Positions 2,236-19,338 of a DNA stretch of 64,000 nucleotides are shown one piece after another. Source of the stretch: Longimicrobiales bacterium (GTDB taxonomy: Bacteria > Gemmatimonadota > Gemmatimonadetes > Longimicrobiales > Gaopeijiaceae); the NCBI GenBank assembly GCA_965200255.1, contig OZ241371.1:2187288-2251287 (forward strand). The letters run 5' to 3'. Position 1 is the first letter of the stretch, and the number at the start of each line of letters is the position of its first letter. The position numbers were made by a program, and so were the translations under genes. The notes under the pieces are model-generated. The model saw only the letters and a list, made by a program, of their open reading frames with translations. It searched no databases and was not told the origin of the DNA.

Positions 2236-3017
2236 GACCCGGCCCCCGTCCCGCTGCCCCCGCCACCCCGCACCACCAGCTCGACTCCGTGCAGTGCCGA
2301 CGCTTCGTCCGGCATGAACGTCATCACGGCGTGCGCGACCTCGTCGGCGGTGATGAGGCGGCCTCCTGGCTGCCTGTCCGCCAGGTTGTCCCGCACGGCC
2401 GCCGCGTCTCGTCCCGTGGTCGTCGCGATGAACGCGATGTTGCGATCCGTCATGGGGGTGTCCACGTAAGCGGGACACACCGAGTTGACCGTGACGCCGG
2501 TCCCCGCAAGCTCGGCTGCCAGACAGCGGGCCATCCCGATCAGCGCATGCTTGGACGCCGTGTACGAAGTGATGTAGCGATTGCCCTCGAGGCTGGCGAC
2601 CGACGCGACGTTCACGACGCGTCCCCAACGCCGCGCCAACATGGCGGGCAACAACGCCTGCGTCACCAGCAGCGGCCCCACGGCGTTCACGCGGTGCAGG
2701 TGCTCCCACTGCTCGCGCGTCACGCGGAGGAACGGCGCCGACCCCGCGATCCCGGCATTGTTCACCACGACGTCGACCGTCCCCAGCAGCGCCTGCGCCC
2801 GACTCGCCATGATCGCCACCGAATCGGGGTCTGCCACGTCGCAGACCACCGCGTGGGCCACGCCGCCCTCGTCTCGCAGCGTTGCGGCCACCGTCTCAAT
2901 CTCGTCGGCGGTTCGCGCGCATACCACCACTCCCACGCCCGCCTGGCTCAGCGCCCGCGCCACGGCCGCCCCGATGCCCCGACCACCGCCCGTCACCACG
3001 GCTCCGCGCCCCGCCAT
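2232..3017 (-). CDS. short-chain dehydrogenase/reductase (3-oxoacyl-ACP reductase-like)
   Basis: VVTGGGRGIGAAVA Rossmann motif, NNAG, and YTASKHAL catalytic Y-x3-K. ATG at 3017; an alternative GTG lies at 3023. Confidence 0.9.
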   Translation of the reverse strand: MAGRGAVVTGGGRGIGAAVARALSQAGVGVVVCARTADEIETVAATLRDEGGVAHAVVCDVADPDSVAIMASRAQALLGTVDVVVNNAGIAGSAPFLRVTREQWEHLHRVNAVGPLLVTQALLPAMLARRWGRVVNVASVASLEGNRYITSYTASKHALIGMARCLAAELAGTGVTVNSVCPAYVDTPMTDRNIAFIATTTGRDAAAVRDNLADRQPGGRLITADEVAHAVMTFMPDEASALHGVELVVRGGGGSGTGAGS

Positions 3018-3026
3018 ACCCACGGG

Positions 3027-3845
3027 CTAGCTCCTCAACGCTTCCGCCAGGGACTCCGTCACGATCTTCCCCAGGACCTGCAAGGTTGCCTGCCCTTCTT
3101 CCCGGGTCGCGGCGGCCGGACTGCCGCAGTAGGCCGCGTCCACGCCCGCCTCTTCAAAGGTAGCCGCGCCCTTGCGGATCGCCACCGACAGCGACGCCGG
3201 GTTCTCCGGCAAGGTCCGCCGCACGCCGTCGCGCACCAGCTCGGGCGCAGCGGCCAGCACCACCGACGTCTCGTAGCAGCCGGCATGGCACGCGCCGCTT
3301 TTGAATTCGTCGGTGAGAAGCGAGGCCCATCGTCGCCGGGTCAGGTCGGGGTGCACAATGGGCATTTCGCCGCGGTGACGCTGCGCCGCTTCGCGGATCG
3401 AGGCCAAGTGGGCCGGGTCGAGGTGCGCATTGACCACCACCAGCGCGACCGCCCCTTGCCGCTCCAACGAGGCCGCCACGTCGGCCAGCAGCGCGGCGAA
3501 GGTCGCGGGCCGCACCGAAATCGTGCCCGGAAAGCCTGCCGCAAAGGGCGCCGCCGTGTAGGCCAGGGGGGGCAGCACCGCGGCGTGGTAGCCGTCGCGC
3601 CGCAGGGCTGGCAGCGCGGCCCTGGCGGCGGCGGTCGCAATGATCACGTCGGTGATCAGCGGAAGGTGGGGGCCGTGCGCTTCCACCGCGCCGACCGGCA
3701 GCAATGCGACCACGCGGGAGCCGGGTGGGGTCGCCGCACTCGCCGCCGCCCGCGCATCGGCACGCCCCCGCCCGAGTCCCAGGGCGTGCAGGTCGGTCCA
3801 GGTCGCGCTTCCCCAATCACATTCGTTCATTTGACCTTCTTCCAT
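3027..3845 (-). CDS. creatininase-family amidohydrolase
   Basis: LLPVGAVEAHGPHLPLITD and GACHAGCYETS motifs typical of the creatininase/MftE-like family. Start taken at the internal Met (MEEGQMNEC), because the first 34 codons of the ORF overlap the divergent CoA-ligase start region. Confidence 0.75.
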   Translation of the reverse strand: MEEGQMNECDWGSATWTDLHALGLGRGRADARAAASAATPPGSRVVALLPVGAVEAHGPHLPLITDVIIATAAARAALPALRRDGYHAAVLPPLAYTAAPFAAGFPGTISVRPATFAALLADVAASLERQGAVALVVVNAHLDPAHLASIREAAQRHRGEMPIVHPDLTRRRWASLLTDEFKSGACHAGCYETSVVLAAAPELVRDGVRRTLPENPASLSVAIRKGAATFEEAGVDAAYCGSPAAATREEGQATLQVLGKIVTESLAEALRS

Positions 3846-3893: not shown

Positions 3894-5444
3894 CTCAACA
3901 TCGCCGACTACTTCCTGGACGACCGCGTCGCGGAAGGCCTGGGCCATCGGGTCGCCCTGCGCACCCGGCGCACGACCGTTTCCTATGCCGCGTTGCAGGC
4001 GCGCGCCAACCGTTTCGCCAATGCCCTGCGGGACCTGGGCGTGCGGCCCGAAGAACGGGTGCTCATCGCGCTCCCGGACACCCCCGACTTCGCCGCCGCC
4101 CTATTCGGCGCGCTCAAACTCGGCGCCGTCGGCGTCATGGTGAACTGCTTCCTCGGCGAGCGACGAATCCGCGAGCTGTACGACTACACCCGCGCCTCGG
4201 CCGTCGTGCTCGACGCGGCCCGTCACGAAGTCTTCCTCGCCGCCGCCGCCAACGCGAGCCACGCGCCGCGCCTCCTCGTTCTCCAAACCCCCGACGGAGA
4301 CGCCCGCGTCAACGCCGCCGCCCCGCGCTTCGACAACTTCCCCTCGCACTCCGACGACCCGGCCATCTGGCTGTTTTCCGGGGGCACCACGGGCCTGCCC
4401 AAAGCGGTCGTGCAGAGCCACGCGTCATTCGTCAACTCGACCCTTTGCTACGCCCGCCAAGTCATTGATTACGGGCCGGACGACATTACCCTCTCGGTTC
4501 CCAAACTACACTTCGGCTACGCCACCGGTTCCAACCTTTTCTTCCCGCTTGCCGTGGGCGCGTCCGCCGTCCTCTTCTCCGAACGCTGCACCGCCGACGA
4601 GCTCTTCGCCCAGATCGCGCGACACCGTCCCACCATCCTGATCAACGTACCCACCATGGTCAGCCACATGGTCTCCCACCCCGACGCCCATCGCCGCGAC
4701 CTGACCTCCCTCCGCCTTGCAACCTCCGCAGGCGAACCGCTCCCGCCCTCCCTGCACCGCCGCTGGAACGACACCTTCGGCGTCGAGCTGCTCGACGGTC
4801 TGGGCACCGCCGAAATGTGGCACGTCTTCATCTCGAATCGGCCCGGCGACGTACGTCCCGGCACCCTGGGCGCCGCCGTCCCAGGCTTCAAGGTGCAGCT
4901 GTGCGACGACCACGGCCGCCCGGTGCCCCACGGCGAGGTCGGCCGCATGCGCGTTCGCGGACAATCGCGCGCCCACGGCTATTGGCAACGGCCCAACGCC
5001 ACCCGACGCGCCTTCGCCCACGACTGGTACGTATCCGGCGACATGATGACCCGCGACGAGCAAGGCTACTTCACCTACCAGGGCCGCGACGACGATCTGC
5101 TCAAGGTCGCCGGCAAGTGGTTTTCCCCACGCGAAGCCGAGGAGTGCCTGCTCAAACACCCCGATGTGCGCGAAGCCGCGGTCGTTGGGGTGGAGAATGA
5201 AGACGGCCTTGTCGTCCCGGTGGCGTTCGTCGTGCCAAATCGGGCCGCAGCGTCACATTTGAGCGGGCGAAACGACGACCCTCCCGAACCCGGCAACGCG
5301 TCCCTCCAGACGCACCTTCGCGCGCACTTGGCGTCCTACAAGGTCCCCCGCGCAATCCACGTCCTCGACGATTTCCCTCGTACTCATCTCGGCAAGGTCG
5401 ACCGCGGCGGCCTCAAGCACATGGCGCGGTTGAGCGGCGGGTAG
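3867..5444 (+). CDS. AMP-dependent aryl/acyl-CoA ligase (benzoate-CoA ligase-like)
   Basis: Distal 525 codons of ORF 2289..5444: WLFSGGTTGLPKAV AMP-binding motif, YVSGDMMTRDEQGYFTYQGRDDDLLKVAGKW, PRTHLGKVDR. An alternative ATG lies at 3885. Confidence 0.85.
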   Translation: MDHIIPMDRLNIADYFLDDRVAEGLGHRVALRTRRTTVSYAALQARANRFANALRDLGVRPEERVLIALPDTPDFAAALFGALKLGAVGVMVNCFLGERRIRELYDYTRASAVVLDAARHEVFLAAAANASHAPRLLVLQTPDGDARVNAAAPRFDNFPSHSDDPAIWLFSGGTTGLPKAVVQSHASFVNSTLCYARQVIDYGPDDITLSVPKLHFGYATGSNLFFPLAVGASAVLFSERCTADELFAQIARHRPTILINVPTMVSHMVSHPDAHRRDLTSLRLATSAGEPLPPSLHRRWNDTFGVELLDGLGTAEMWHVFISNRPGDVRPGTLGAAVPGFKVQLCDDHGRPVPHGEVGRMRVRGQSRAHGYWQRPNATRRAFAHDWYVSGDMMTRDEQGYFTYQGRDDDLLKVAGKWFSPREAEECLLKHPDVREAAVVGVENEDGLVVPVAFVVPNRAAASHLSGRNDDPPEPGNASLQTHLRAHLASYKVPRAIHVLDDFPRTHLGKVDRGGLKHMARLSGG

Positions 5445-5445
5445 C

Positions 5446-8400
5446 ATGGCCGCAACAGCGACGGCGGGCGTCTACGAGGGCATCCACAACGAGCAGGAGT
5501 TCTACAGCAACCATTACCTCGCCGAGTTCCTGGGCAAGGACATCCAGGAGACCGTCAAGCGGTGGACCGCCGAGGGCGCCGCATCGGGACAGCCGCCGCC
5601 CCACGCGGCCTTGGGCAAGCTGGCCGCCGAGTTCGCCCGCTCCCGCGCTCGGTTCGCCGAGCCGGCGGGCCGCAGCCACGCCACAACCCGCGACTCCCGC
5701 GAGGCCCAACCAAGCTTCGCCGCCGGGCACGCCATCGGGAAACGCCTCGCCCTCCAAAACGCGTGGCACCGCCAGCTGCTGGACGTCCTGGGATACGATT
5801 GGAGCCCACGCGACCACCTCCTCGACGACGGCGTCGACATCCCCATCCTGGCCAGCGCGACGGCATCGACCGGCGGGGCCGCATCGCGCGGCAACCCCGA
5901 CCTCCTGGTCATCGGCGCGCTCGACCCCTCCACGGACGACCCCAGCCCGCTCGATCTCCGCCCCCTGCGCCAACAGTTTCGCAGCGAAGCCCCGCCCCCG
6001 GACGACCTGTTGCGGGAAGATTGGGAGCGCATCGTCACCCGCCGCGTCTTCGCCCAGGACCGTCCGCCACGCTGGGTTCTGCTCCTGTCTTTCGGCCAGG
6101 CATTGCTGATCGAGCGCGGCAAGTGGTCGCACGGTCGCCTGTTGCGCTTCGATCTCGCCGAGATTCTGGGTCGCGGGGACGCCGCCGCCGTCAAGGCCGC
6201 GGCCGTGCTGTTGCACCGCGAGTCGCTGGTTCCGGCGTCGGGTTCCGGGCCGTCGCTTCTGGACGAGCTCGACGGCAACAGCCATCGCCACGCGTTCGGG
6301 GTCTCGCAGGACCTCAAATACGCCATGCGCGAGTCGATCGAGCTGATCGGCAACGAGGCCATACGCTACCTGCGCGAAGTGCGGCACGAGCGGGTGTACA
6401 ACCTCGACGGGGACTTGGCCGACGCGCTTGGGCGCGAATGTCTCCGCTACATGTACCGCCTCCTCTTCCTCTTCTACATCGAAGCGAGGCCCGAACTTGG
6501 CTACGCGCCGCTGAACTCGGACGCGTACCGCAAGGGATACGGCCTCGAGCGACTGCGCGACCTGGAGATGGTCGAGTTGGCCACGCCGGAATCGCGCGAC
6601 GGCTTCTACTTGCACGAGAGCGTGCGCATGCTTTTCCGCCTGCTGTCGGAGGGGTTCGACGGCGATCGCTGGGGCGGAACCCGCGACCTGTTCGGGAACG
6701 TGGAACCCCTCCAAATCGGTTTCTCGATCCGCGCGCTCGACAGCGCCCTGTTCCGCGAAGGATCGACGCCGCTGCTCGACAAGGTGAAGCTGCGCAACCA
6801 CATACTGCAACGGGTGATCCGCCTGCTGTCGCTCAATCGTCCGGTCAAGAGCGGCAAGAGCAGCCGAATCCGGCGGCGCGGGCGCATTCGTACGCGCACC
6901 TGGGCATCAACCAGCTGGGATCGGTCTACGAATCGCTGATTGCCTACCGGGGCTTCTTCGCCGAGCAAGACTTGTACGAGGTCAAGAAGGCCGGCACGAC
7001 CCCCGATCCGCTGCACAGCGCGTGGTTCGTGTCCGCGACCGACCTCGACGAATACCGCGACGACGAGAAGGTCTACTATCGCGACGCGGACGGCCGCCGC
7101 CGCTTGCGCATGTACAAGAAAGGCACGTTCGTCTACCGCCTGCAGGGCCGCGACCGCGAGAAATCGGCCAGCTACTACACGCCCGAATCGCTGACGCGCT
7201 GCGTGGTCAAGCACACGTTGAACGAGCGAATAGCCGACGACACGCCCGCCGACGAGATCCTGCGCCTGACGGTGTGCGAGCCCGCCATGGGGTCCGCCGC
7301 CTTCCTGAACGAAGCGGTCAACCAGTTGGCCGAACGCTACTTGCAGCGAAAGCAGCGCGAGCTTCGGACCAGGATCGAGCACGAGGACTACCCCGACGCA
7401 CTGCAACGCGTACGCCACTACATCGCCGACCGCAACGTCTACGGGGTGGACCTGAATCCGATGGCGGTCGAGCTTGCCGAAGTCTCTCTGTGGTTGAACT
7501 GCATTCACCGGGACGGCCACGTGCCCTGGTTCGGCTACCAGCTCACCTGCGGCAACTCGCTGGTGGGCGCAAGGCGCCAGGTTTATCCGGTGGATCAGGT
7601 GCAAAAGCAGAAGGGGCAGAAGAAGGCCGACCTTTGGTTCAACCACGCCCCGGACCGCGTGAATCCCGCTTTCGATATGCGGCGGCCGGAGAGCACGGTG
7701 TACCATTTTCTGCTTCCCGACCATGGCATGGCGAGCTACAAGGACAAGGCGGCGAAAGCCCTCGAACCCGCCCATTTCACTCGCATCGGCGCATGGCGCA
7801 AGACGTTCTGCAAGGCGTTTTCGGCGACGGACGCGGCCGAGCTCGAGCGTCTCTCGGACGTGGTGGACAAGCTGTGGAACCTGCACGTGAAACAGCTCGC
7901 GCGCGATCACCTCGAGACGGAAGACACCCAACTCGTGTGGGGCCAGCCGGACCCCGAGCGCCCTCGGCGCACGCCCAACGCGTGGAAGGACCGCATTCGC
8001 GATCAGGGGATCTTCGCGGAGGGCGGCGCGGTGGCGAGTCCGTACCGCCGCCTCAAGCTGGTGATGGACTACTGGTGCGCGCTGTGGTTCTGGCCGATTG
8101 CGGAGTCTGATTTGCTGCCCAGCCGGGACGAGTTCCTGGACGAGCTATCGCTGATCTTGACGGCCGACGCGAGGCGAGAGGACCAGCCCGAGCAGATCGA
8201 GATGCTGTTCGGCGAAGAATACGCGGAGCACGGCCGCGAGATGGCCGAGCGGGTGGTGGACGAGGCCGGGATGCTGGACTTGGCCGAGCTGTTCGCCCGC
8301 TCCCCGCGCCTAAGCCTGGTGGACGAGCTGGCCGCGCGGCACCGGTTCCACCACTGGGAGCTCCACTTCGCCGACGTGTTCTACGGGACGGGGGAGGACG

Positions 8401-10515
8401 GGAAGGTGCGGGGCGGCTTCGACGTGGTCCTGGGGAACCCGCCGTGGGTGAAGGTGGAGTGGAAGGAGAGCGGGGTGTTGGGAGACTATCGTCCGTTGGT
8501 GGCGATTCGGAAGTACCGGGCGGCGCGGATTGCTGCGATGCGGAGCGACGCGTTCGAGGAGCGCGCCGGGTTGCGGGACGCCTGGTTCGAAGAGATGGAG
8601 GGCGCGAGCGCCATGCAGGCGTTCTTGAACGCGGTGCAGAACCACCCATTTCTCCGTGGCCAAAAAGCCAACTTGTACAAGTGCTTCGTGCCGCGGGCGT
8701 GGATGATTACGGGCGAAGACGGGGTGGCGGGGTTGCTGCATCCCGAGGGTGTGTATGATGACCCGAGCGGTGGCGTTTTCCGGGAGGCATTGTATCCACG
8801 GTTGCGGTCACACTATCAGTTCTTGAACGAGTTGAAACTGTTCGAGGAGGTGGACCACCACACCAAGTTCAGCGTCAACGTCTACGGCAGGGCGTTGACG
8901 ACACCGCGGTTCAAGCATATCGCCAACCTCTTCGCACCTGCGACCGTTGACGCCTGTCTTGACCACAACGGCCAGGGACCTGTGCCGGGTATCAAAGACG
9001 ATGACAACAAGTGGAACACCGCTGGCCATTCACACCGTATTGTCAAGGTCGATGTCGATGGCCTTGCCGTGTTTGCGACGTTGTACGATGCGCCGAACAC
9101 GCCGGCGCGCCGTGCACGGTTGCCCGCCCTGCATGCCGAGACGTTGCTGCGAGTGCTGCGCAAACTTGCCGCACATCCCTTGCGGCTCGGCGACTTGACG
9201 AAGGAGGATTTCACTGTGTCGCAGCATTGGAATGAAACGATTGCCCAACGTGACGGCACCATCCGCCGCAGAACCCGGTTTCCAGAGACCGCGCCCGATT
9301 TGGTGTTCTCGGGCCCCCACTTCTTCGTCGGCAACCCGAGCTACAAGACGCCGCGCCGGACCTGCACGCTGAGCAGCCACTACGATGTCCTGGACCTCAC
9401 CACCGTGCCGGACGACTACCTGCCACGCACCAACTACATCCCAGCGTGCACACCCACCGAGTACGCACGGCGCACGCCCCGCGTATCGTGGATCGAGCCC
9501 GGCGAGGCGCCGCCCGGCGAGGCATCGCCCAGTGAGGCGCCGCCCGGCAAGGCACCGCTCGGCGAGGCGCCACCCGGTAAGGAAAAATCGCGCAAGGTCA
9601 CGGACTACTACCGCGTGATGAATCGTGAGATGGTAGCCCCTGCCATGGAACGCACGCTCATCCCGACGCTGATTCCAAGGGAAGCCGCACTGATCCACAC
9701 GAATGCAGCCACCGCATTTCGCCGAGCGGGCGAAGGCGTGGACTTCGCCGCCCTCACGATGTCCACCGTCCTCGACTTCTTCATCAAGAGCACCGGAACC
9801 GGCAATGTGAACCTCGCCTGGCTCTCCCGTCTTCCCCTCCTCACCCCCGACACCCCTTCCGGCCTCCGCGCCGCTCTACGTCTCCGCACCCTCCTGCTCA
9901 ACTGCCTCACGATTCACTACGCCGAGCTCTGGGACGAGCTCTACGATCCCGCCTTCATCAGCCGACCGCTGGACCAGGGACGATCCCCGCCTGCCATCTC
10001 ACCATTTCACGGACCTTGAAGCCGAATGGTCGTGGTTCACCCCGCTGCGTACCGACTTTGCGCGCCGTCAGGCCCTCGTCGAAATCGACGTACTGGCCGC
10101 CATGGCGCTCAATCTCACCCTCGACGAGCTCCTGACCCTCTACCGCGTCCAGTTTCCCGTCCTGCGACATTACGAATCGGACACCTGGTATGACGCGAAC
10201 GGTCGCACTGTATTCACATCCTCCAAGGGACTTCCCGGCGTCGGCCTCCCCCGCACGGCGCGAAAAGGGGACACCGCATACGGCCTCCGCACGCCCCACC
10301 GCAGCGACACCGGCATCGCCCTCGGCTGGAACGACGTGCGGCACCTCGCGAACGGCGTCGTCACCCGCACAATCGAAGACGACACCCTGCCCGACGGCCC
10401 CTTCGAGCGCACTATCGAGTACCACGCCCCCTTCGACCGCTGCGACCGCGAGGAAGACTACCGCACGGCCTGGGACGCCTTCGAGCGACGGTTCGGGACG
10501 GGGAAGTCGCTCTGA
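5446..10515 (+). pseudogene. giant Eco57I/PglX-like gamma-class N6-adenine DNA methyltransferase, interrupted by two frameshifts (~6865-6885 and ~9955-9970)
   Basis: Three + strand ORF pieces join into ~1,690 codons: 5446-~6880 (frame 1), ~6882-~9965 (frame 3), ~9967-10515 (frame 1). Motifs, in order: EQEFYSNHYL; SYAHLGINQLGSVYESL; YYTPESLTRCVV; motif I CEPAMGSAAFL; motif IV VLGNPPWVKVEW; RRQALVEIDVLAAMALNLTLDELLTLYRVQFPVL; DTWYDANGRTVFTS. The pseudogene call is provisional because the indels could be assembly errors. Confidence 0.7.
9501..9575 (+). repeat. in-frame 5 x 15-nt tandem repeat (GEAPP/GEASP/SEAPP/GKAPL/GEAPP) inside the methyltransferase
   Basis: Read directly: ggcgaggcgccgccc-like units at 9501, 9516, 9531, 9546 and 9561. 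Confidence 0.9.
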
Positions 10516-10679
10516 TGCAACGGGATACGACCCAGACATAGCTTTCCGAACCACCGCCTGCAAGTCCATCGCCGCCCAAGGACATCGCGCGAAACAACGG
10601 GCCGCCAAGGACGAACCACGGCGAGAACTCGAACGAGCGGGCCAAGGAGAGATACGGCAGGCCACGCTGCGAAGACATC

Positions 10680-11093
10680 ATGGCGCGCGGGATCAGAACG
10701 CCGCTAGAATACAAGGACCATCCCATCGACTTGTTGAAGGAGGCCACCGACATGCACAGCACCGCCGCTGCCTACCGCCAGTCCCTCGACGATCTGATGA
10801 ACCAAAGCCGCGAGCAGGGGATCCGCCAGGGCCGCGAGCAGGGGATCCGCCAGGGCCGCGAGCAGGGGATTCGCCAGGGCCGCGAGCAGGGAATCCGCCA
10901 CGGCGAGAAACAGAGCTTGGTGCGCCTAGCCACGTTGAAGTTCGGACGGGACGCGGGTGAAGCGTTTTCGAACTTGGTCGGCAGCTCCAGGGGAGCGGAT
11001 TTGGACGGCTTGGCCGCCGCGATTCTGGAAAGCGAATCGGCCAGCGCGTTGCTCGACCGCGCCAGGAATCTGCCCGGTCAGGCTGCCCCGTAA
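10680..11093 (+). CDS. stand-alone Rpn C-terminal-domain ORF (137 aa) with REQGIRQG x4 expansion
   Basis: ATG ORF. LEYKDHPIDLLKEATDMHSTAAAYRQSLDDL...KFGRDAGEAFSNLVGSSRGADLDGLAAAILESES..LLDRARNLPGQAAP is nearly identical to the C-terminus of the neighbouring full-length Rpn. Whether it is expressed is unknown. Confidence 0.5.
   Translation: MARGIRTPLEYKDHPIDLLKEATDMHSTAAAYRQSLDDLMNQSREQGIRQGREQGIRQGREQGIRQGREQGIRHGEKQSLVRLATLKFGRDAGEAFSNLVGSSRGADLDGLAAAILESESASALLDRARNLPGQAAP
10704..11093 (+). repeat. segmental duplication, copy A (rpn 3' region)
   Basis: Near-identical by eye to 11879-12172, apart from the 24-bp repeat expansion. Weaker similarity continues ~30 nt past both stop codons. Confidence 0.85.
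10809..10904 (+). repeat. in-frame 4 x 24-bp tandem repeat (cgcgagcaggggatccgccagggc)
   Basis: Read directly: units at 10809, 10833, 10857 and 10881. The first two are identical; the last two carry 1-3 substitutions. Confidence 0.9.
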
Positions 11094-11254
11094 GGCATCG
11101 GCTTCCAAAGCCCTGAAGCCACAGGATACGACCGAGGAACAAATGTCTTGCGCGCATCCAAAATTAGTCCCATCCAGCTATGGCAACGCCCCTGACTTTC
11201 CTGCACCGTTAACGGGACAAGCGCGACCCTCGCGCTCCGAACGTCAGGGAGCCC

Positions 11255-12172
11255 ATGTACGACGTCATCCTGAAGCGGCTGTTCGCCAACCCCATTATGG
11301 TGGAAGAGACCATCCGAAGTCACTTGCCCGACTGGGCCGAGCGGTTGGATTTCTCCACGCTGCGGCAGGACCCGACCGAGCTCATCGGCGAGAAAGCCCT
11401 CAAGCGCCTACCCGACGTCGCGTGGAGCGCTCGCTCGAAGGCGGACGACACCGACTTCCTGCTCCTGCTTGAGTTTCAAGGCGCTTCGGATCCCGACATG
11501 GCGGCGCGCACGACGGCCAGCAAGGTCCTGGCCGTCCAGGCGCATCGCCGCAAGCAACGATCGGACAAGCAGCGGCCCCCGCGCAATATTGAAATCGAAG
11601 TGGTCGTGCTGTATCATGGCGCGGTCCGATGGACAGCCAGCAGGGGCATGGACGAGATCGTGCGGGGGCGGCGCGTCGACAGGTATCACTTGCTCGATCC
11701 GATGCTGCCCGAGGCGTCCCGCCTGACCCGACGGCACCTGCCGGAACTGTTTCTGATCACTTCGCGCGCCCGGACCGTGGGTGAATTCGGGTTCCCGTTC
11801 TCGGAAATCGTTCGAGTGGTGGACGAGGTTGGCGATCCGGAGCTTGAGAAAGCCGCGTTGCGCGCGCTCAAGGAATTGTTAGAGTACAAGGACCATCCCA
11901 TCGACTTGTTGAAGGAGGCCACCGACATGCACAGCACCGCCGCTGCTTACCGTCAGTCCCTCGACGATCTGATCCGCCAGGGCGAGAAACAGACCTTGGT
12001 GCGAATGGCGGCCATGAAGTTCGGACGGGACGCGGGTGAAGCGTTATCGAACTTGGTCGGAAGCTCCAGGGGAGCGGATTTGGACGGCTTGGCCGCCGCG
12101 ATTCTGGAAAGCGAATCGGCCAACGCGTTGCTCGACCGCGCCAGGAATCTGCCCGGTCAGGCCGCTCCATAA
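11255..12172 (+). CDS. Rpn family recombination-promoting nuclease / putative transposase (PD-(D/E)XK, YhgA-like)
   Basis: 305 aa: MYDVILKRLFANP..., then DVAWSARSKADDTDFLLLLEFQGASDPDMAARTTASKVL (the D...EFQ core typical of the family), then a C-terminal helical domain. Confidence 0.8.
   Translation: MYDVILKRLFANPIMVEETIRSHLPDWAERLDFSTLRQDPTELIGEKALKRLPDVAWSARSKADDTDFLLLLEFQGASDPDMAARTTASKVLAVQAHRRKQRSDKQRPPRNIEIEVVVLYHGAVRWTASRGMDEIVRGRRVDRYHLLDPMLPEASRLTRRHLPELFLITSRARTVGEFGFPFSEIVRVVDEVGDPELEKAALRALKELLEYKDHPIDLLKEATDMHSTAAAYRQSLDDLIRQGEKQTLVRMAAMKFGRDAGEALSNLVGSSRGADLDGLAAAILESESANALLDRARNLPGQAAP
11879..12172 (+). repeat. segmental duplication, copy B (rpn 3' region)
   Basis: Matches 10704-11093 but carries only a partial repeat unit (atccgccagggc). 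Confidence 0.85.
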
Positions 12173-12392
12173 GCTACGGCTCCGAGGTCCCTGAGGTACG
12201 CATCCCGGCGCCGGTAGAGCCGCACGCCCATGGACAGCCTGTTGCGTGACGCCTTCGACGGCGCTCCTACGAGCCGTCCGCGGTAACATGGTGGCGCGTT
12301 TTCCGCTACGCTAATGGGGTCATTTTCTCGCCACCTCCCCGCTCCGTCGCCCACCACGCCCTGCAACCTACCGTGCCCCAGCCCCCGACGCC

Positions 12393-12953
12393 ATGAACCA
12401 CCCTCTCACCATTCCCGTCCTCGTGGGGTCAGTGCGACGGGGGCGCCAGTCGATCAAGGCGGCCCGCTTCGCCAGCCAAAGGCTCGAACGAGCCGGCGCA
12501 TGCGCCCCGCTGCTTGATCTGGCCGAGATCAACCTCCCGATCATGGAGGAGCGTCTCGGCAAGCGCGACGACCCACCCGCGGGGCTGGTCGGATTCTCTC
12601 AATCGATTCGCGACGCCGACGCGGTGGTGGTCGTCAGTCCCGAGTACAATGGGTCCATGCCGGGCGTGCTCAAGAACGCGCTGGACTACCTCTACGGGGA
12701 ATGGTACCGGAAACCGGTGGGAATTGTGACAGTATCGGGCGGCGGCTTCGGCGGCGTGCAGGTCCACAACCACCTTCAGCTGCTTTTTCTGCGACTGAAG
12801 GCGCTTCCCGTAGCGGGCATGGCCGTTTCTCAGGTTGCTCGCAGCTTCAGCGAGTCAGGCAAACCGACAAGCGACCGATACCTCAAGTCCTTCGCAGGCT
12901 TCATCGACACGTTGACCTGGTACGCGCGCGTGATCAACGCCGCAACGGAGTAA
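12393..12953 (+). CDS. NAD(P)H-dependent FMN reductase family oxidoreductase
   Basis: 186 aa: IPVLVGSVRRGRQS, VVVSPEYNGSMPGVLKNALDYL. Confidence 0.85.
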   Translation: MNHPLTIPVLVGSVRRGRQSIKAARFASQRLERAGACAPLLDLAEINLPIMEERLGKRDDPPAGLVGFSQSIRDADAVVVVSPEYNGSMPGVLKNALDYLYGEWYRKPVGIVTVSGGGFGGVQVHNHLQLLFLRLKALPVAGMAVSQVARSFSESGKPTSDRYLKSFAGFIDTLTWYARVINAATE

Positions 12954-12999: not shown

Positions 13000-14547
13000 A
13001 TGGGATCGTTCTATCTCACGACGCCGATCTACTACGCTTCGGGCGAACCTCACTTGGGACACGCGTACACCACCATTCTGGCCGACGTTCTGGCGCGCTA
13101 CCACCGCCGGGCCGGAGACGACGTGCTCTTCCTCACCGGAACCGACGAGCACGGCCAGAAGATCCAGGAGGCTGCCGCGGAGCACGGCCTGACCCCTTTG
13201 GAACTCTGCGACCTCATGGCCGACCGCTTCAAGGCGGCCTGGGTCGAGCTCGGCATCTCCAACGATCGCTTCATCCGCACCACGGAGCCGGAGCATATCG
13301 CCGTCGTGAGCGCGCTGCTGGAACGCCTGTACGACAACGGGTTCATCTACGAGGCGGACTACGCGGGTTGGTATTCGGTCAGTCAGGAACGGTACTTCAC
13401 CGAAAAGGAGATTGGACCGGACCGCGTCGATCCCATCGCCGGCAAGCCCGTCACGAGGATTCGCGAGAAGAACTGGTTCTTCAAGATGAGCCTGTTTCGC
13501 GATCGTCTGATTGCGCACATCAAGGAGCACCCGGAATGGATCGTGCCGGCAACGCGCCGAAACGAGGTGCTCGGCTTCCTGAACCGACCGCTCGACGACC
13601 TTTCCATTTCCCGACCCCGCTCTCGGATCAGCTGGGGGATTCCCATTCCGTGGGATCCGGACCAGGTGACCTACGTTTGGGTGGACGCGCTCACCAACTA
13701 CGTGACAGCTTCCGGAGCGATTGATCCCGGTGCGCCCAGGGAAAAGCGAGGGTTCGGCGATCCCCTGCCGTCGCGCTGGCCGGCCGATGTTCACCTAATG
13801 GGAAAGGACATCATCACGACGCACGCGGTGTATTGGCCTATCCTGCTCATGGGGGCCGACTTGGCGTTGCCGCGGAAGATTCTCGCACACGGATGGTGGG
13901 TGGTCGGCGACACCAAGATGTCCAAGTCGCTGGGCAACGTGGTGGACCCCCTCGACCTGCGCAACGTCTATGGGACCGACGCGGTGCGCTGGTACCTGAT
14001 GCGCGAAATGGCCACGGGCCAGGACGCCTCGTACACGCCCGAGCGCTTTCTCATCCGATACGACGAATTGCGCAACATCTTCGGCAACCTGGCCCACCGC
14101 ACTCTTTCCATGATCAAGCGCTATCGGGGCGGTATCGTACCCGGGGCTCGCGACGACGGCCTCGAGGCGGAAACCGCGACCGCCCTTGCGGAATACCGAC
14201 GCGGACTCGATCGCTACCGACTCCACGAGGGGTTCGCGGCGGCCATGGATCTGGCTAGAGCAGCCAACGGGTTCATCGAAGGGTCGGAGCCATGGGCGCT
14301 CGCGCGGGACCCTCGGCGGGACGCCGACCTGGATCAGGTGCTCGCCACCTTGGCGCGCACGCTGGCCGTGTTGGCCTGCCTGTTCGAGCCCGTAACGCCA
14401 GCGAAGGCGGCCGAGCTGGCAACCCGGCTGGGTCTCGCCGAAGTCCCACATTTTGCGGACTTGGGCGACGTGCGCTTGGCCGGACTCCAGACCACCGTAC
14501 GGACGCCGTTGTTCCCGCGCGTAGACGCTGCCCGCGCGGAAGCTTGA
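13000..14547 (+). CDS. metG: methionine--tRNA ligase (short form)
   Basis: TTPIYYASGEPHLGHAYTT (HIGH region) and KMSKSLGNVVDP (KMSKS). Confidence 0.95.
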   Translation: MGSFYLTTPIYYASGEPHLGHAYTTILADVLARYHRRAGDDVLFLTGTDEHGQKIQEAAAEHGLTPLELCDLMADRFKAAWVELGISNDRFIRTTEPEHIAVVSALLERLYDNGFIYEADYAGWYSVSQERYFTEKEIGPDRVDPIAGKPVTRIREKNWFFKMSLFRDRLIAHIKEHPEWIVPATRRNEVLGFLNRPLDDLSISRPRSRISWGIPIPWDPDQVTYVWVDALTNYVTASGAIDPGAPREKRGFGDPLPSRWPADVHLMGKDIITTHAVYWPILLMGADLALPRKILAHGWWVVGDTKMSKSLGNVVDPLDLRNVYGTDAVRWYLMREMATGQDASYTPERFLIRYDELRNIFGNLAHRTLSMIKRYRGGIVPGARDDGLEAETATALAEYRRGLDRYRLHEGFAAAMDLARAANGFIEGSEPWALARDPRRDADLDQVLATLARTLAVLACLFEPVTPAKAAELATRLGLAEVPHFADLGDVRLAGLQTTVRTPLFPRVDAARAEA

Positions 14548-14589
14548 CCTGGGCGACGGCACCGGGTATCGTGTTGGGTTGACGAGTGC

Positions 14590-15555
14590 TTGGGATTCCC
14601 TTGGAGGTGCGTGATTAGCGGCAACAAAGGTAAATGGACGGTGCTCTTCCTACGAGAAGGAACCGATAGGATACGACAATTCTCGCCGTCCGCGTGGGTG
14701 GTGCGCCGCGGATTCGTGTTGGCGTGCGCGCTGGTTGGGTTGCTGGCCGGGGCGACCGGGTATTTCCTCTTCGACACTGGAGTTCGCGGACGCGCGGCGC
14801 TTCTCGCCCGCGAGAATCGCCTGCTCATGGCCGAGGTGGAGCAGATGCGCGCCTCGGTTTCCGAGCTGGACCGTCGAATCGCCGTGCTGGCGGAAAAAGA
14901 CCGCAGAGTGCGACTGGTTGCAGGCTTGCTTGAGATCGACGAAGACGTGCTCGACGTCGGCATCGGTGGGCCGGGCCTCGAATCAGCCAACGAGAGCGAG
15001 CTGTGGGCGTTGGACCGAGAGGCGTCCGAAGCCGCCTACGCGATTCGCTACGACCTGGCGTTCCTGTTGCGCAGGGCCAACCTGTTGAGCAGCAGTTTCT
15101 CCGAGACGGAGGAATCCCTGGAGGAGCGACGGGAACGCCTCAGATTCACCCCGTCCATCCTTCCGACCAAGGGACCGATTTCGAGCGCCTTCAACGTCAG
15201 CAGGCTGCATCCCGTCTTCAGGATCTACGCGCCGCACGACGGCATCGACCAGAACGCCGAGCGCGGCACCCCGTTCGTGGCCACCGCCGACGGCGTGGTG
15301 TCGTTCGCGGGGTGGAAGCCCGGCTTGGGCAACACGGTCGAAATAGACCACGGCTTTGGTGCAACTACGGTTTACGGTCACGCCTCCAAGTTGTTGGTGG
15401 CCGCCGGCGCCAGGGTGTGGCGCGGAGACGTGATCGGTCTCGTCGGCTGCACCGGCGTGTGCACCGGGCCGCACGTACACTACGAGGTCCACATCGACGG
15501 TCGCCCGGTCGATCCGCTGCGGTACGTGCTGCGCAGCATTCCAGGGACGGAGTGA
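14590..15555 (+). CDS. M23 family metallopeptidase (LytM/NlpD-like)
   Basis: HDGIDQNAERGTPFVATADGVV...GNTVEIDHGFG..TVYGHAS...GCTGVCTGPHVHYEV. The start is uncertain: TTG at 14590, or GTG at 14611 after GGAGG. Confidence 0.85.
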   Translation: MGFPWRCVISGNKGKWTVLFLREGTDRIRQFSPSAWVVRRGFVLACALVGLLAGATGYFLFDTGVRGRAALLARENRLLMAEVEQMRASVSELDRRIAVLAEKDRRVRLVAGLLEIDEDVLDVGIGGPGLESANESELWALDREASEAAYAIRYDLAFLLRRANLLSSSFSETEESLEERRERLRFTPSILPTKGPISSAFNVSRLHPVFRIYAPHDGIDQNAERGTPFVATADGVVSFAGWKPGLGNTVEIDHGFGATTVYGHASKLLVAAGARVWRGDVIGLVGCTGVCTGPHVHYEVHIDGRPVDPLRYVLRSIPGTE

Positions 15556-15653
15556 GTTAGCCAAGCTTTGCGTTCTTTACACGGAAGGTCTTCTGGGCTT
15601 ATTTTGGGCGTTCCGATATCCTCAAGCATTGCGTGAACTTCAGGGAGCAAGCA

Positions 15654-16427
15654 ATGACGCGACTGAAAAATGGCATCGTGCTGGCGGCGATTCTGGCACC
15701 AATCACCTTGGCGGCATGTGGTCCGGCGGACGTGAGCGTGTACGTGGCGCTCGGCGACGACGAGAACCCCGATCCACTCGACGCCGTAGAGGTGCGGCTC
15801 CTGCCGTACGATCGCGATCAGATTTTCGATTCTCTTGCGGCAGCGGCGACCGCGCCGGAGCCGCAGATTCCAGCCGATCTGCTGGCCGCCCAGGAAGAGA
15901 TCGCTGCGGCCCAGCAAGAGTGGAGAGACGCCGAGGATCGCTGGAACATTCTGCGGGACACTCTGAACACGCTCAACACGGCCTTGGAAGGCCTCAATCC
16001 AGGCGAAAGTCTGTACCGGGCGATCTATAACGAGTGGCAGGATCTTGAATCGGAGCTGAACCGCACCGAGGGACGCGTCGCCGCGCTGTTCAATACCTTT
16101 AACGAGCTGCAGCAGGCGGCAATCGGAAGGATGGACAGCATGAGGGCGGTGCAAGGCGACTGGGCAGACATGGCGTTCGAGGACTACGATCTGGTCCGGG
16201 CCGCAAGATTGGACGCGACGGGACTCGAGGAGCTCGCGGACACGACGGACGCAAACGGCATCGCGGACTTCCAGGACGGCGTCGCGCCTGGCATGTACTG
16301 GGTAAACGCTCGACACTCGCTGCCGTACGACGAGCTCTACTGGAACGTCGCGATTACGGTGACGCGCGAAGAGCCGCTGATCCTGCGCCTCATGCGAGAA
16401 AACGCCGAAGTTCGACCCATATTCTGA
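15654..16427 (+). CDS. hypothetical lipoprotein (coiled-coil-rich)
   Basis: ATG preceded by GGGAG. Signal peptide plus lipobox, MTRLKNGIVLAAILAPITLAAC. No recognised catalytic motif. Confidence 0.6.
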   Translation: MTRLKNGIVLAAILAPITLAACGPADVSVYVALGDDENPDPLDAVEVRLLPYDRDQIFDSLAAAATAPEPQIPADLLAAQEEIAAAQQEWRDAEDRWNILRDTLNTLNTALEGLNPGESLYRAIYNEWQDLESELNRTEGRVAALFNTFNELQQAAIGRMDSMRAVQGDWADMAFEDYDLVRAARLDATGLEELADTTDANGIADFQDGVAPGMYWVNARHSLPYDELYWNVAITVTREEPLILRLMRENAEVRPIF

Positions 16428-16433
16428 CCGCGC

Positions 16434-17075
16434 TTGGGGGGCGGCCAGGTCGTCGGGATTGTGCTCGCGGCGGGGTCGTCCTCGCGCATGGGCACTTCGA
16501 AGGCGCTGCTTGACGCCGACGGCGTCACGTTCGTGGCAAGACTTGTCGATGTGCTGCGTCGAGGGGGTTGTGCGCCGGTGATCGTGGTGACCGCTGCGGG
16601 GTCCGGGGCGCTACCAGCCGAGGTGGATCGGTGCGGGGGACTTCCCGTCGTGAACCCACGAGGCGCGGGGGGTCAGATCGCGTCGCTCCGCGTGGCCTTG
16701 GACCACGCGCGCGTTGGGGGCAATCCGTCCGGCTGTGCGCATCCGCCCGACGCGTTCGTGTTCACGCCCGTCGACAATCCCGCCGTGCGCGCTCGTACGG
16801 TCGACAAGCTGATTCGCGGATGGCGGCAATCGCGGCTGCCCATCGTGATGCCGAGGTATGGCAGCCAACGAGGTCATCCGGTGCTGGTCGACATGAGGAT
16901 CGTGGACGAGTTTCGCGAACCGGGCTTGCAGGAAGGCGCCCGCTCGGTGGTGCGGCGCGACCCCGCGCGCGTCCTTGAAGTGACGGTCGACGATCGCGGT
17001 ACTGTCGACGACATCGACACGCCGCGTCGCTATCGTGCACGGTTTGGTGCGAATCGGGGCCCCGGCCAAGCGTGA
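16434..17075 (+). CDS. MobA/MocA-like molybdenum cofactor nucleotidyltransferase
   Basis: VGIVLAAGSSSRMGTSKALL N-terminal nucleotidyltransferase motif, FVFTPVDNP. Stop overlaps the next start (GTGA). Confidence 0.75.
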   Translation: MGGGQVVGIVLAAGSSSRMGTSKALLDADGVTFVARLVDVLRRGGCAPVIVVTAAGSGALPAEVDRCGGLPVVNPRGAGGQIASLRVALDHARVGGNPSGCAHPPDAFVFTPVDNPAVRARTVDKLIRGWRQSRLPIVMPRYGSQRGHPVLVDMRIVDEFREPGLQEGARSVVRRDPARVLEVTVDDRGTVDDIDTPRRYRARFGANRGPGQA

Positions 17076-17917
17076 GAATCTCTGCGGCGCGGGTAGCCGC
17101 CCGGGTACTGGAAGCGCTCGAAAAGGGGGAACGCATTGTTACCGCCGTGGTCGTCGATGCGGCGGACCAATCGATGATCGGGCGGCGTTGGTGGCTTTGC
17201 GGCAGGCGCAGCCGGGGCACGCTCGGAAGCCTAGCATTGGACGCGGTGGTGGCCGCGGCGGCGCCGTCGCTCTTCCCCTCAAGAGAATCCCGAGGGGCGC
17301 TCAGTCGCAAGTTCAGGTATGGCGACGGAGACAAGACCGCCCTGGTCTACCTGGAGCTGCACGGTCCGCCCGCCAGGATGGTGATTGTCGGTGCGGGACA
17401 CATCGCGATCCCGCTGGCGCGGATGGGCGCCATGCTCGGAATGCGGGTGGAAGTGCTTGACGACCGTGCGCAATTTGCTGCGGCGGAACGGTTTCCAGAC
17501 GCCGACGCGGTGCGCGTGATTGATTTCCGCGATCCGTTTGCGGCGACCGCCCTCGGCCCGCCCGACCATGTGATTCTGGTGACGCGCGGGCACAGCTTCG
17601 ACTACGAATGCCTGGTGCGGCTGCTGCGTATGGAGGAGCCGCCCGGCTACATTGGGATGATCGGCAGCAGGCGGCGGGTCCGCGCGACACACGAGCAGCT
17701 CGTGCGCGAAGGCTTCACGATCACGCAGATGAAGCGGGTTCGGGCGCCGGTCGGGCTGGATCTTGGCGGGCAGACCCCGGCCGAGATCGCGGTTGCGGTG
17801 GTCGCGGAAATCATCCTGTTTCATGCGGGCGGAACGGGAGCGCCCCTGGTGGACAAAGAGCGCGTCGTGGAACGATTCTTTGGCGGTGCGGCCGATGCCG
17901 GCGTCGCACGCACCTGA
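17072..17917 (+). CDS. XdhC/CoxI family Moco-insertion accessory protein
   Basis: MVIVGAGHIAIPLARMGAMLGMRVEVLDDR Rossmann segment, YIGMIGSRRRV, APVGLDLGGQTPAEIAVAV. Confidence 0.85.
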   Translation: MRISAARVAARVLEALEKGERIVTAVVVDAADQSMIGRRWWLCGRRSRGTLGSLALDAVVAAAAPSLFPSRESRGALSRKFRYGDGDKTALVYLELHGPPARMVIVGAGHIAIPLARMGAMLGMRVEVLDDRAQFAAAERFPDADAVRVIDFRDPFAATALGPPDHVILVTRGHSFDYECLVRLLRMEEPPGYIGMIGSRRRVRATHEQLVREGFTITQMKRVRAPVGLDLGGQTPAEIAVAVVAEIILFHAGGTGAPLVDKERVVERFFGGAADAGVART

Positions 17918-17935
17918 CCGAGTCGAGGGGGAGAC

Positions 17936-18265
17936 ATGGACGAGAAGGAAGTGATTGCCCAGCTGGCCAGCTTGGCGGAGCCGGTGGTCCTGGCCACGAT
18001 TGTGTCCGCGAAGGGCTCGACCCCGCGCAAGACGGGTGCACGGATGCTGATCGGCCGTGAAGGGGTGATCGCCGGAACCGTCGGCGGCGGTTGTGGCGAA
18101 GGCGAGGTCATCGCGGCCGCTCAGGATCTCTTCGAGGGCGGGCCCCCCACGACGGTGCGGGTCGATCTTACGGACGACTTCACCTCGTGGAGCCCTGCAG
18201 TCTGCGGCGGGATCATGAACGTGTTCATTGAACAGGCGAACCCGGAGCGGTTCGGGGACCGGTAA
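17936..18265 (+). CDS. XdhC N-terminal-domain-only protein
   Basis: 109 aa: VLATIVSAKGSTPRKTGARMLI...GTVGGGCGE. RBS GGGGGAGA lies upstream. Confidence 0.75.
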   Translation: MDEKEVIAQLASLAEPVVLATIVSAKGSTPRKTGARMLIGREGVIAGTVGGGCGEGEVIAAAQDLFEGGPPTTVRVDLTDDFTSWSPAVCGGIMNVFIEQANPERFGDR

Positions 18266-18341
18266 CGTGCAGTCGGGGCGTCCGTGCGCCGACGCCGCGG
18301 CACTACCGGCGCCTCGGGCGTTGCCGCCGCCCGGGTCGTGG

Positions 18342-18863
18342 GTGGACATACGCTACCACAGGATCGAGCGACCCACCGAGACCTATCGGCAACTGGTCCT
18401 GGAAAGCGGCAATGCAGGAATTGTCACCTTCCAGTCACGAACGCCCATCGGTGCGCCGCTCCAGATTGGCGGCACCCCGATTCTCGAACCCGGTTCTCCG
18501 GTCGTGTGGTTCACCTTCCCCGGAGCATGGCACGATATCGGCCTGTTTCACCTTGCCGACGGGACGCCTACGGGGCTGTACGCCAACGCGTTGACCCCGG
18601 TTGAGTTCGCAGGACCCGCTACGTGGGAGACGACCGACCTATGTCTCGACGTCTGGATCCCGGCCGACGGCCCGGCGCGACTCCTTGACGAGGCCGATCT
18701 GGAGCAGGCCGAAAAGACGGGACTGATCCAGCACCAACTTGCCCGGCGGGCGCGGGAAGAATCCGTCGCCTTGTTGCGAGGTCACCGTGCCGGTACCTGG
18801 CCACCGGCCCTGGTGCAGGAATGGTCGTTGGCGCGGGCGTTGGCTCAAATGCCCGAACGGTGA
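18342..18863 (+). CDS. DUF402 family protein (FomD-like nucleoside phosphatase fold)
   Basis: Distal part of ORF 18228..18863: WFTFPGAWHDIGLFH...TTDLCLDVWI...LLDEADLEQA. A GTG start at 18342 is proposed; the upstream part overlaps the xdhC-N gene. Confidence 0.6.
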   Translation: MDIRYHRIERPTETYRQLVLESGNAGIVTFQSRTPIGAPLQIGGTPILEPGSPVVWFTFPGAWHDIGLFHLADGTPTGLYANALTPVEFAGPATWETTDLCLDVWIPADGPARLLDEADLEQAEKTGLIQHQLARRAREESVALLRGHRAGTWPPALVQEWSLARALAQMPER

Positions 18864-18876
18864 CGGGGCTGGCGGC

Positions 18877-19338
18877 CTATCCGGCGCGACTCCGCAGCCG
18901 CCCCACCTCGGGCACGGTCGCCGCAAACACCACCGTCATGAGGATCGCCGACGCGACGCAGTAGCGGCACCACGCCTGGATGACCATCGCCTCCAGGTAG
19001 GTCAGGTATGCGCTGAACAGCACGCCGGCCAGGGCTCCGCCAAAGAGGAGAAACGAAATCGCCCGCGAGTGGACGAACCGGCCCTGCAACCCTGCAAGCG
19101 ACAACGCCAACAGTGCCAGATACCCGGCAAACCCGATCGCGGACACGGGCACGGGCCCAACCCACGCATACTTTGACGACTGTACCAAGCTGCACGCGCC
19201 GCTGCCGCACGGCACCGGCGGCACCCACCCCAGGTTGCTGGCCATCAGAAAAAAGGCCAGAAACACGCCCACCAGAGACAGGACGGCCACCGCCATGCGG
19301 TTGACCGGCGGGCGGTTGACCGGCAGACCGGGCGCCAT
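18877..19338 (-). CDS. vitamin K epoxide reductase (VKOR) family membrane protein
   Basis: Multi-TM protein with CGSGAC and CRYC cysteine pairs. Start taken at the internal Met (MAPGLPV), so that it does not overlap dsbA. Confidence 0.8.
   Translation of the reverse strand: MAPGLPVNRPPVNRMAVAVLSLVGVFLAFFLMASNLGWVPPVPCGSGACSLVQSSKYAWVGPVPVSAIGFAGYLALLALSLAGLQGRFVHSRAISFLLFGGALAGVLFSAYLTYLEAMVIQAWCRYCVASAILMTVVFAATVPEVGRLRSRAG

Follow-up and report, generated by a model that had tools for sequence, protein, structure and literature searches.

Why should a bacterial chromosome carry, immediately upstream of an intact rpn gene, a second open reading frame (ORF) that encodes nothing but the C-terminal domain of Rpn? 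The question arises in a 64,000-nucleotide (nt) stretch of contig OZ241371.1 (positions 2,187,288 to 2,251,287 of the forward strand), part of the metagenome-assembled genome (MAG) of a Longimicrobiales bacterium (Gemmatimonadota). This whole stretch is called the window below, and positions are those of the window unless another sequence is named. The short ORF occupies positions 10680-11093 and the intact rpn positions 11255-12172, both on the plus strand. In Escherichia coli, rpn is a gene within a gene: internal initiation yields a short C-terminal protein, RpnS, in which four-residue repeats lie 8-20 residues after the initiating Met in a long first helix, and RpnS proteins bind and block the full-length RpnL (Zhong et al. 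2023, PNAS, PMC10400941). An earlier note on this DNA cited that precedent correctly, and proposed for the short ORF the role of a dedicated antitoxin, encoded apart from the full-length Rpn next to it and neutralising that protein. The answer favoured here, with appreciably better than even confidence, is that the ORF is what is left of an older, second rpn paralogue: its RpnS ('antitoxin') cistron survives, while the nuclease half has been destroyed.

The short ORF and its intact neighbour

The short ORF begins with an ATG and encodes 137 amino acids (aa); a public collection contains it as a 137-aa protein (P0001). It ends 161 nt before the start of the intact rpn. The near-identity to the neighbour's tail that had been noticed by eye is borne out by alignment: from L9 onwards the ORF matches residues 209-305 of the intact Rpn, with 90 of 97 residues identical outside a 32-aa insertion. 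The corresponding DNA identities are 96.8% over 94 nt and 92.6% over 202 nt (blastn E 6e-37 and 3e-79). The insertion consists of 4.1 copies of a 24-nt tandem repeat with the unit REQGIRQG. The ORF thus comprises the Rpn C-terminal domain alone; a Pfam scan did not match it to PF04754 and assigned it no family. Matches to FliH models of NCBIfam fell far under their cut-offs, are due to the (E/Q)G-rich repeat, and were discarded as spurious.

The intact gene encodes 305 aa. Its residues 3-137 match PF04754 (Transposase_31, YhgA-like) with 37.6 bits against a cut-off of 21 (E 2.2e-9); this PD-(D/E)XK domain, scoring above the Pfam gathering threshold, places the protein in the Rpn/YhgA-like family (PF04754, COG5464). 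Three residues in a D...E-x-Q arrangement, D54, E73 and Q75, are invariant in alignments of 12 and 38 sequences; from general knowledge of the family, we take them to be catalytic. The NCBIfam RpnA model matches the protein marginally (E 0.04). An AlphaFold2 (AF2) model of the full-length protein (pLDDT 89, pTM 0.81) has the first helix of the tail at residues 225-256. When this model was compared with the PDB by Foldseek, the weak top matches were enriched in PD-(D/E)XK nucleases (PaqCI, Shedu, HamA and cap-snatching endonucleases); neither it nor the AF2 model of the fragment gave a PDB match at E <= 0.001.

In the part that follows the repeats, the tail is homologous to proteins bearing DUF4351 (hhalign probability 96.4%, E 1e-9), and 8 of 24 aligned small homologues match the corresponding Pfam family, PF14261. 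Like the small DUF4351 proteins, it has (Q/E)G-x-x repeats followed by L-x-x-L-x-x-(R/K)-F-G and two to three short helices. A scan of the whole genome with PF14261 left the window tails unmatched and detected only another paralogue, under the cut-off at E 0.014. Judged by these profile comparisons, the window tail is a DUF4351 homologue beyond the reach of the model. Searches of the PDB with the intact protein and with a tail profile returned designed helical repeats and chance matches only, and RpnA-S was not among them.

Further members of the family are encoded in the same genome. A third full-length paralogue (locus L003, C1:611499-612413) is 57% identical and has the same internal start described below, and about a dozen more distant PF04754-like N-domains are also present. 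The Rpn family is thus an expanded one in this lineage.

Anatomy and history of the relic

The DNA directly upstream of the short ORF provides the key to its origin. Positions 10526-10633, beginning about 10 nt past the stop codon (10515) of an armB-like gene, contain a diverged remnant of Rpn residues 78-113, in a frame that differs from that of the tail. The remnant shows 56% aa identity and about 75% nt identity over 60-70 nt, and is not near to any paralogue of the genome. Strong similarity to the neighbouring rpn begins only at 10705, and about 90 codons (roughly residues 125-208) are missing between ~10690 and that point. With the scrap out of frame, the 5' end cut and the ~90 codons lost, the locus is best described as a 5'-truncated, internally deleted and frameshifted rpn gene of which only the tail has stayed open. 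As judged from this anatomy, the fragment appears to be the relic of an older, diverged rpn paralogue.

The remnant also accounts for the first ATG of the ORF. Its 'HHGARD' aligns with 'LYHGAVRW' of the intact gene, and within the shared string ATCATGGCGCG the ATG is the out-of-frame 'tAT CAT Ggc' of ancestral Y-H-G codons. The correspondence of 'atc ATG gcg' with 'tat cat ggc' drawn previously is therefore real, but the further claim that the deletion junction created the ATG does not hold: the triplet existed earlier out of frame, and the rearrangement merely put it in frame with the tail.

Fragment and intact rpn lie together in a 6.7-kb block (5447-12175) that is duplicated, in inverted orientation and with 94% identity, at C1:2022576-2015898 of the same genome (G000; 'copy 2' in what follows). 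Since the pair is present in both copies, the fragment must be older than the duplication. The comparison of the two copies bears directly on where translation would begin. In copy 2, one C has been lost from a CCC run (10722-10724 in the window), 30 nt upstream of an internal ATG at 10752 (M25 of the ORF), and the frame equivalent to that starting at 10680 stops after 18 codons. From the equivalent of 10752 the copy-2 tail is open, and the public gene call there begins at MHSTAAAY (P0002, 101 aa). In the window, the ATG at 10752 is preceded, with a spacing of 8 nt, by a perfect Shine-Dalgarno (SD) sequence, AAGGAGG. The same SD and ATG are found in both fragments and in both intact copies; in the window intact gene, the ATG at 11927 corresponds to M225. 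The fragment thus has its own ribosome-binding site (RBS) and ATG (10737-10754) exactly where the internal RpnS start of a complete rpn is situated. Taken together, these features make ATG 10752 the likely start, in place of the junction ATG at 10680 from which the ORF had been read. The earlier note had also named stops or frameshifts in relatives as signs of decay; copy 2 does show such a frameshift in the 137-aa frame, but it spares the cistron that starts at 10752.

The internal start itself is conserved well beyond this locus. Among 21 Rpn homologues, drawn from this genome and those of congeneric Longimicrobiales species and ~30-35% identical to the window protein, the aligned internal Met is invariant (21/21), and every one has an SD of at least 5 nt located 7-11 nt upstream. 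The residues encoded by the SD region vary (LKEA, LEEA, QGGW, KEGA, KGGA), and elsewhere in these genes no more than 3.9% of codon positions have an SD of this length at comparable spacing. About 15-16 residues past the internal Met, four-residue units (EGRV, QGIR or QGLE, for example) follow one another in variable number; an onset at 15 residues lies inside the published range. The RpnS proteins predicted for these homologues (loci L016-L034 and L003; 11912-11929 in the window) comprise 75 to 111 aa. The AF2 model of the 113-aa product of the fragment (pLDDT 83) has its first helix at residues 2-64, followed by three short helices. Compared with residues 225-256 in the intact protein, the repeats lengthen this helix, as predicted by Zhong et al. 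(2023).

The intact gene accordingly resembles the intragenic RpnL/RpnS genes described for E. coli RpnA-E, RpnP2 and Clostridioides difficile Rpn (Zhong et al. 2023): it has a PF04754 N-domain, an internal RBS and ATG ~80 codons before the stop, four-residue repeats 15 residues after the Met, and a tail of helices, the first of them long. It differs in that its identity to E. coli Rpn is marginal, and that toxicity, nuclease activity and internal initiation are inferred for it.

The close similarity of the fragment to its neighbour might suggest a recent duplication. The four tails of the genome were therefore compared site by site, with the third full-length paralogue included. At 10925-10935, both fragments and the third paralogue encode LVRLATL, versus LVRMA(A/T)M in both intact genes. 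At 10946-11025, the window fragment is the same as the window intact gene, whereas the copy-2 fragment differs at ~19 of 80 sites and resembles the third paralogue (QDAG.., AEPDFDG). The latter stretch is a gene-conversion tract, the only one for which a direction can be inferred, and that direction was from the intact gene to the fragment. The fragment tail was thus originally about as diverged from the neighbour as the N-terminal scrap still is, with conversion overwriting it patch by patch; its near-identity to the neighbour is thus attributable to concerted evolution and not to a recent duplication of that gene. The intact copies of the two blocks also diverge unevenly, with a synonymous divergence (dS) of 0.25 in the C-terminal domain and 0.06 in the N-domain, a roughly fourfold difference.

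The following course of events emerges. A second rpn paralogue was cut from its 5' side at the end of the armB-like gene and lost its central ~90 codons, leaving an N-terminal scrap out of frame. Its complete tail was kept, including the internal RBS and ATG at the position used by all Rpn genes of the genus that were examined, and exchanged sequence with the adjoining intact rpn by gene conversion, in an arrangement that predates the 6.7-kb duplication. Read-through transcription and translation from 10752 would then yield a 113-aa helical protein, presumably dimerising by its long first helix.

The two copies of the block and their ARMADA context

The gene upstream of the fragment encodes an Eco57I/PglX-like methyltransferase (Pfam), and is armB-like. 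In copy 2 it is a single ORF of 1827 aa, followed by the rpn fragment, the intact rpn, a DEAD/Helicase_C/MZB helicase (armC-like) and a UvrD helicase (armD-like) that bears a ParE/RelE-like N-terminus. A strict order armA-B-C-D has been reported for ARMADA systems (Bell et al. 2025), and the gene order of copy 2 agrees with it save for the rpn insertion. In copy 2, fragment and intact rpn thus sit inside an apparently complete ARMADA type II array, a defence operon, with armB on one side and armC on the other. This agrees with the enrichment of rpn genes in defence islands (Zhong et al. 2023). Two ORFs, of 377 aa (DEAD) and 1801 aa (Helicase_C, MZB), make up the armC-like helicase of copy 2; at positions 10717-11850 and 5423-10828 (minus strand) of locus L121, these overlap by ~110 nt in different frames, and could reflect a split gene or a frameshift.

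The block in the window is less well preserved. Relative to copy 2, its armB-like gene has one extra base near 9962 (CAGCCGACC vs CAG-CGACC), a +1 frameshift that leaves two ORFs (5562-10019 and 10102-10515), and no helicase genes follow downstream. On this evidence, the window block is a stranded duplicate. Its left end is at the armB start (5447), and its right end coincides, within ~3 nt, with the stop of the intact rpn (12172-12175); an rpn 3' end as duplication boundary would fit the proposal in the literature that local rearrangements are initiated by Rpn nucleases. A search of a plasmid collection with the 6.7-kb block returned distant armB-like methyltransferase matches only, with rpn unmatched.

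A promoter-like sequence, TTGAAA-17-TATCAT (10 of 12 matches), is located within the intact rpn at 11589-11617, ~310 nt 5' of the internal start. Copy 2 shares this sequence, but it is not conserved among the remaining homologues and the fragment lacks it; no weight was therefore given to it. Table 1 collects the features of the locus and of the related sequences discussed below.

Table 1. Positions of the rpn fragment, its intact neighbour and related features. Coordinates refer to the window unless a locus is named.
Feature	Coordinates	Strand	Basis
Flagged ORF, from junction ATG to stop, 137 aa	10680..11093	+	ORF list; public gene call P0001
Probable real cistron, 113-aa RpnS-like protein (M25 to stop)	10752..11093	+	alignment; copy-2 gene call; AF2
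SD AAGGAGG, 8 nt before ATG 10752, counterpart of the internal RpnS RBS	10737..10743	+	alignment, 21/21 homologues
Tandem repeat, 24 nt x4.1 (REQGIRQG = two four-residue units), lengthening helix 1	10807..10904	+	repeat detection; AF2
Gene-conversion tract	10946..11025	+	window fragment = window intact copy; copy-2 fragment like third paralogue
Decayed nuclease-domain remnant (Rpn residues 78-113) of the old paralogue, other frame	10526..10633	+	translated and nt comparison
Rearrangement junction, ~90 codons lost	10690..10705	+	alignment to neighbour and copy 2
Intact rpn (RpnL, 305 aa) with N-terminal PD-(D/E)XK-type domain	11255..12172	+	Pfam; alignments; AF2
Internal SD AAGGAGG of the intact rpn	11912..11918	+	sequence; homologue alignment
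Predicted intragenic RpnS cistron of the intact gene, M225 to stop, 81 aa	11927..12172	+	alignment; AF2 helix 1 starts at 225
6.7-kb block: armB-like methyltransferase gene, rpn fragment, intact rpn	5447..12175	+	blast vs own genome
Copy 2, in L121 (G000:C1:2004000-2023999)	rpn 11902-12855; fragment about 13017-13500; armB 13558-19044	-	
Tail-like gene of 77-81 aa	L059 ~5981-6592 (minus-strand coordinates); L103 (minus); L040 2991-3239; L038 4097-4333 (minus)		

Spare RpnS, pseudogene or dedicated antitoxin

Tail-only copies of rpn are not peculiar to this genome. The earlier note had suggested a survey for rpn genes accompanied by C-terminal-only ORFs. In 77 related loci (L044-L120), 66 rpn genes are complete, 22 tails are complete but not attached to a complete nuclease domain, and ~5 tails are broken; with hits at locus ends and frameshifted genes set aside, only one or two complete nuclease domains lack a tail. 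The 22 comprise 5' truncations, internal deletions (e.g. N-terminal residues 1-40 plus tail) and a few frameshifted genes. Internal deletions that fuse residues 1-40 or 1-125 straight to the tail are recurrent. Where tail-only copies reach the start of the tail model, essentially all keep the ATG and SD. The excess of intact tails is as expected for a toxin/antitoxin encoded as a gene within a gene, in which the toxin half may go first but the antitoxin half may not. Relics such as the fragment would then be the expected decay products of such genes, and need not each be functional. A parallel is provided by the orphan antitoxin relics of type II systems, in which the toxin half is likewise gone, the antitoxin half is left, and the order of loss is set by toxicity; the difference is that toxin and antitoxin here share one overlapping frame, so that loss of the 5' part or of an internal segment of one gene is what leaves the relic.

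Some free-standing tail-like genes of the clade are, however, clearly under selection. A free-standing gene of 77-81 aa (MREQVHRDGVRQGLEQGLERG...RKFG...), found by rpn arrays in three MAGs, has a ratio of non-synonymous to synonymous substitution rates (dN/dS) of 0.09-0.22 at a dS of 0.4-0.57, which marks it as a small gene that stands alone under selection; the number of its repeats differs by one unit between copies. Small free-standing homologues also occur near rpn genes on other metagenome contigs. One orthologous pair of relics (L066/L060) has four differences only and is uninformative on selection. In L079, a 578-aa open frame (1976-3709, plus strand) contains two complete tails one after the other (residues 335-424 and 499-575); beneath it, the opposite strand encodes an rpn nuclease domain.

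Is the fragment expressed? It is co-directional with the armB-like gene and with rpn, and no plus-strand terminator is predicted around it, so it is probably transcribed by read-through. Together with the perfect SD, and with the operon-like array that surrounds the ORF in copy 2, this makes some expression likely. The most serious competitor of the surviving-cistron reading, though an unlikely one, is nevertheless that the tail is silent pseudogene scrap, whose intact appearance reflects only the youth of the rearrangement compared with the pace of mutation, together with repair by conversion from a functional neighbour. Several observations count against the favoured reading, and some of them suit this competitor. 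No promoter-like site was found upstream of the fragment. Between the two fragments, dN/dS is 0.54 (14 non-synonymous and 8 synonymous changes), indistinguishable from neutral in a comparison with few changes that is confounded by gene conversion, and outside the conversion tract a hand count gives ~4 non-synonymous to 2 synonymous changes. Survival of an open 340-nt frame through 4-7% divergence is no more than expected by chance. Among 5.8 billion proteins, no orthologue of the fragment closer than 45% was found outside this genome; in 60 related genomes, no homologue exceeded 35%. The assignment of the tail is affected as well: it gave no match to PF14261 at E <= 1, the link to DUF4351 running via intermediate homologues, and RpnA-S (PDB 7TH0), whose three-helix bundle dimerises through a long helix, was not recovered by Foldseek with either AF2 model. 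Finally, the non-cognate character argued for below leans on a single E. coli RpnC experiment, extrapolated to a distant phylum.

Other features of the locus also fit silent scrap: the upstream nuclease remnant is plainly dead, the window armB copy is frameshifted, as expected of a decaying block, and the inferable conversion tract was copied into the fragment. What speaks for a cistron that can still be read is that the perfect AAGGAGG-N8-ATG has been kept in both fragment copies; that some translation would be hard to avoid if the co-directional, terminator-free block is transcribed; that the copy-2 fragment sits between armB and armC within an apparently live operon; and that a comparable E. 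coli gene, rpnSs (YpaA), is expressed.

The arrangement is therefore not new. Stand-alone rpnSs genes with DUF4351 are known in E. coli (ypaA/rpnESs downstream of rpnE, and rpnCSs downstream of rpnC), and YpaA is expressed (Zhong et al. 2023). The fragment seems to be a further instance, novel only as to phylum. In both cases a tail-only small ORF lies beside a full-length rpn, derives from rpn by local rearrangement and has variable repeats in helix 1, and the adjoining rpn retains its own internal RpnS. The differences are that the ORF is upstream of the intact gene here, but downstream in E. coli; that it stems from an older, other paralogue, later homogenised in part, whereas the E. coli rpnSs cluster with their neighbour; and that a dead nuclease scrap and a strongly mismatched repeat number are visible. 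In addition, the host is an uncultured Longimicrobiales MAG.

The dedicated antitoxin of the earlier note is improbable. In its favour, the fragment is the same domain as RpnS, shares 93% identity with the neighbour's tail outside the repeat, and is adjacent to and co-directional with the intact gene; RpnS proteins do bind and block RpnL (Zhong et al. 2023). This picture is complicated by the repeats. After 'DDL', the number of four-residue units is 1 in the window intact gene and 9 in the window fragment, and 4 and 6, respectively, in copy 2, so that neither fragment agrees with either intact gene; the 9 units of the window fragment are unmatched by any intact copy (1, 4 and, in the third paralogue, ~2-3). 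In E. coli RpnC, neutralisation was lost when one partner alone carried an extra unit and regained when both did (Zhong et al. 2023). By this precedent, the fragment would lack the matching repeat number that neutralisation of its cognate RpnL presupposes. Moreover, the 10680 frame on which the proposal was built is broken in copy 2, the comparison of the two fragments detects no purifying selection after the duplication, and the neighbour keeps the conserved internal RBS (11912-11918) and ATG (11927) of its own RpnS, so that the pair is not a 'genetically separated' toxin/antitoxin. A helix 8 units (32 aa) longer than the neighbour's, next to a gene that has its own RpnS, points to an orphan of the rpnSs type and not to the working antitoxin of that gene; if translated, the product is most likely a spare, non-cognate RpnS.

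Least probable, and by a long way doubtful, is the notion that tail-only copies are silent conversion donors that re-tune the helix length and specificity of RpnL and RpnS under phage pressure, in a process that the Rpn nuclease itself might stimulate: sequence has demonstrably been exchanged between fragment and intact tails, the four tails have 1, 4, 6 and 9 units, the dS contrast between the domains of the intact copies suggests imported sequence, and Zhong et al. (2023) speculated that RpnL promotes such events, but the only inferable tract ran from the intact gene to the fragment, the reverse of what a cassette requires, slippage alone explains the changes in repeat number, and no evidence of selection for the arrangement was found. 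Were it true, it would amount to a cassette-based diversification of a phage-defence toxin/antitoxin, nested in an ARMADA type II operon.

For annotation, which is where the finding chiefly matters, the 137-aa ORF is better entered as an rpnSs-type relic, with a likely product of 113 aa from 10752, than as a new kind of split toxin/antitoxin. The conservation of the internal RBS, ATG and repeat region in an uncultured genus of Gemmatimonadota supports the generality of the gene-within-gene model, and an order of loss imposed by toxicity would explain why tail ORFs litter genomes without each of them having a function.

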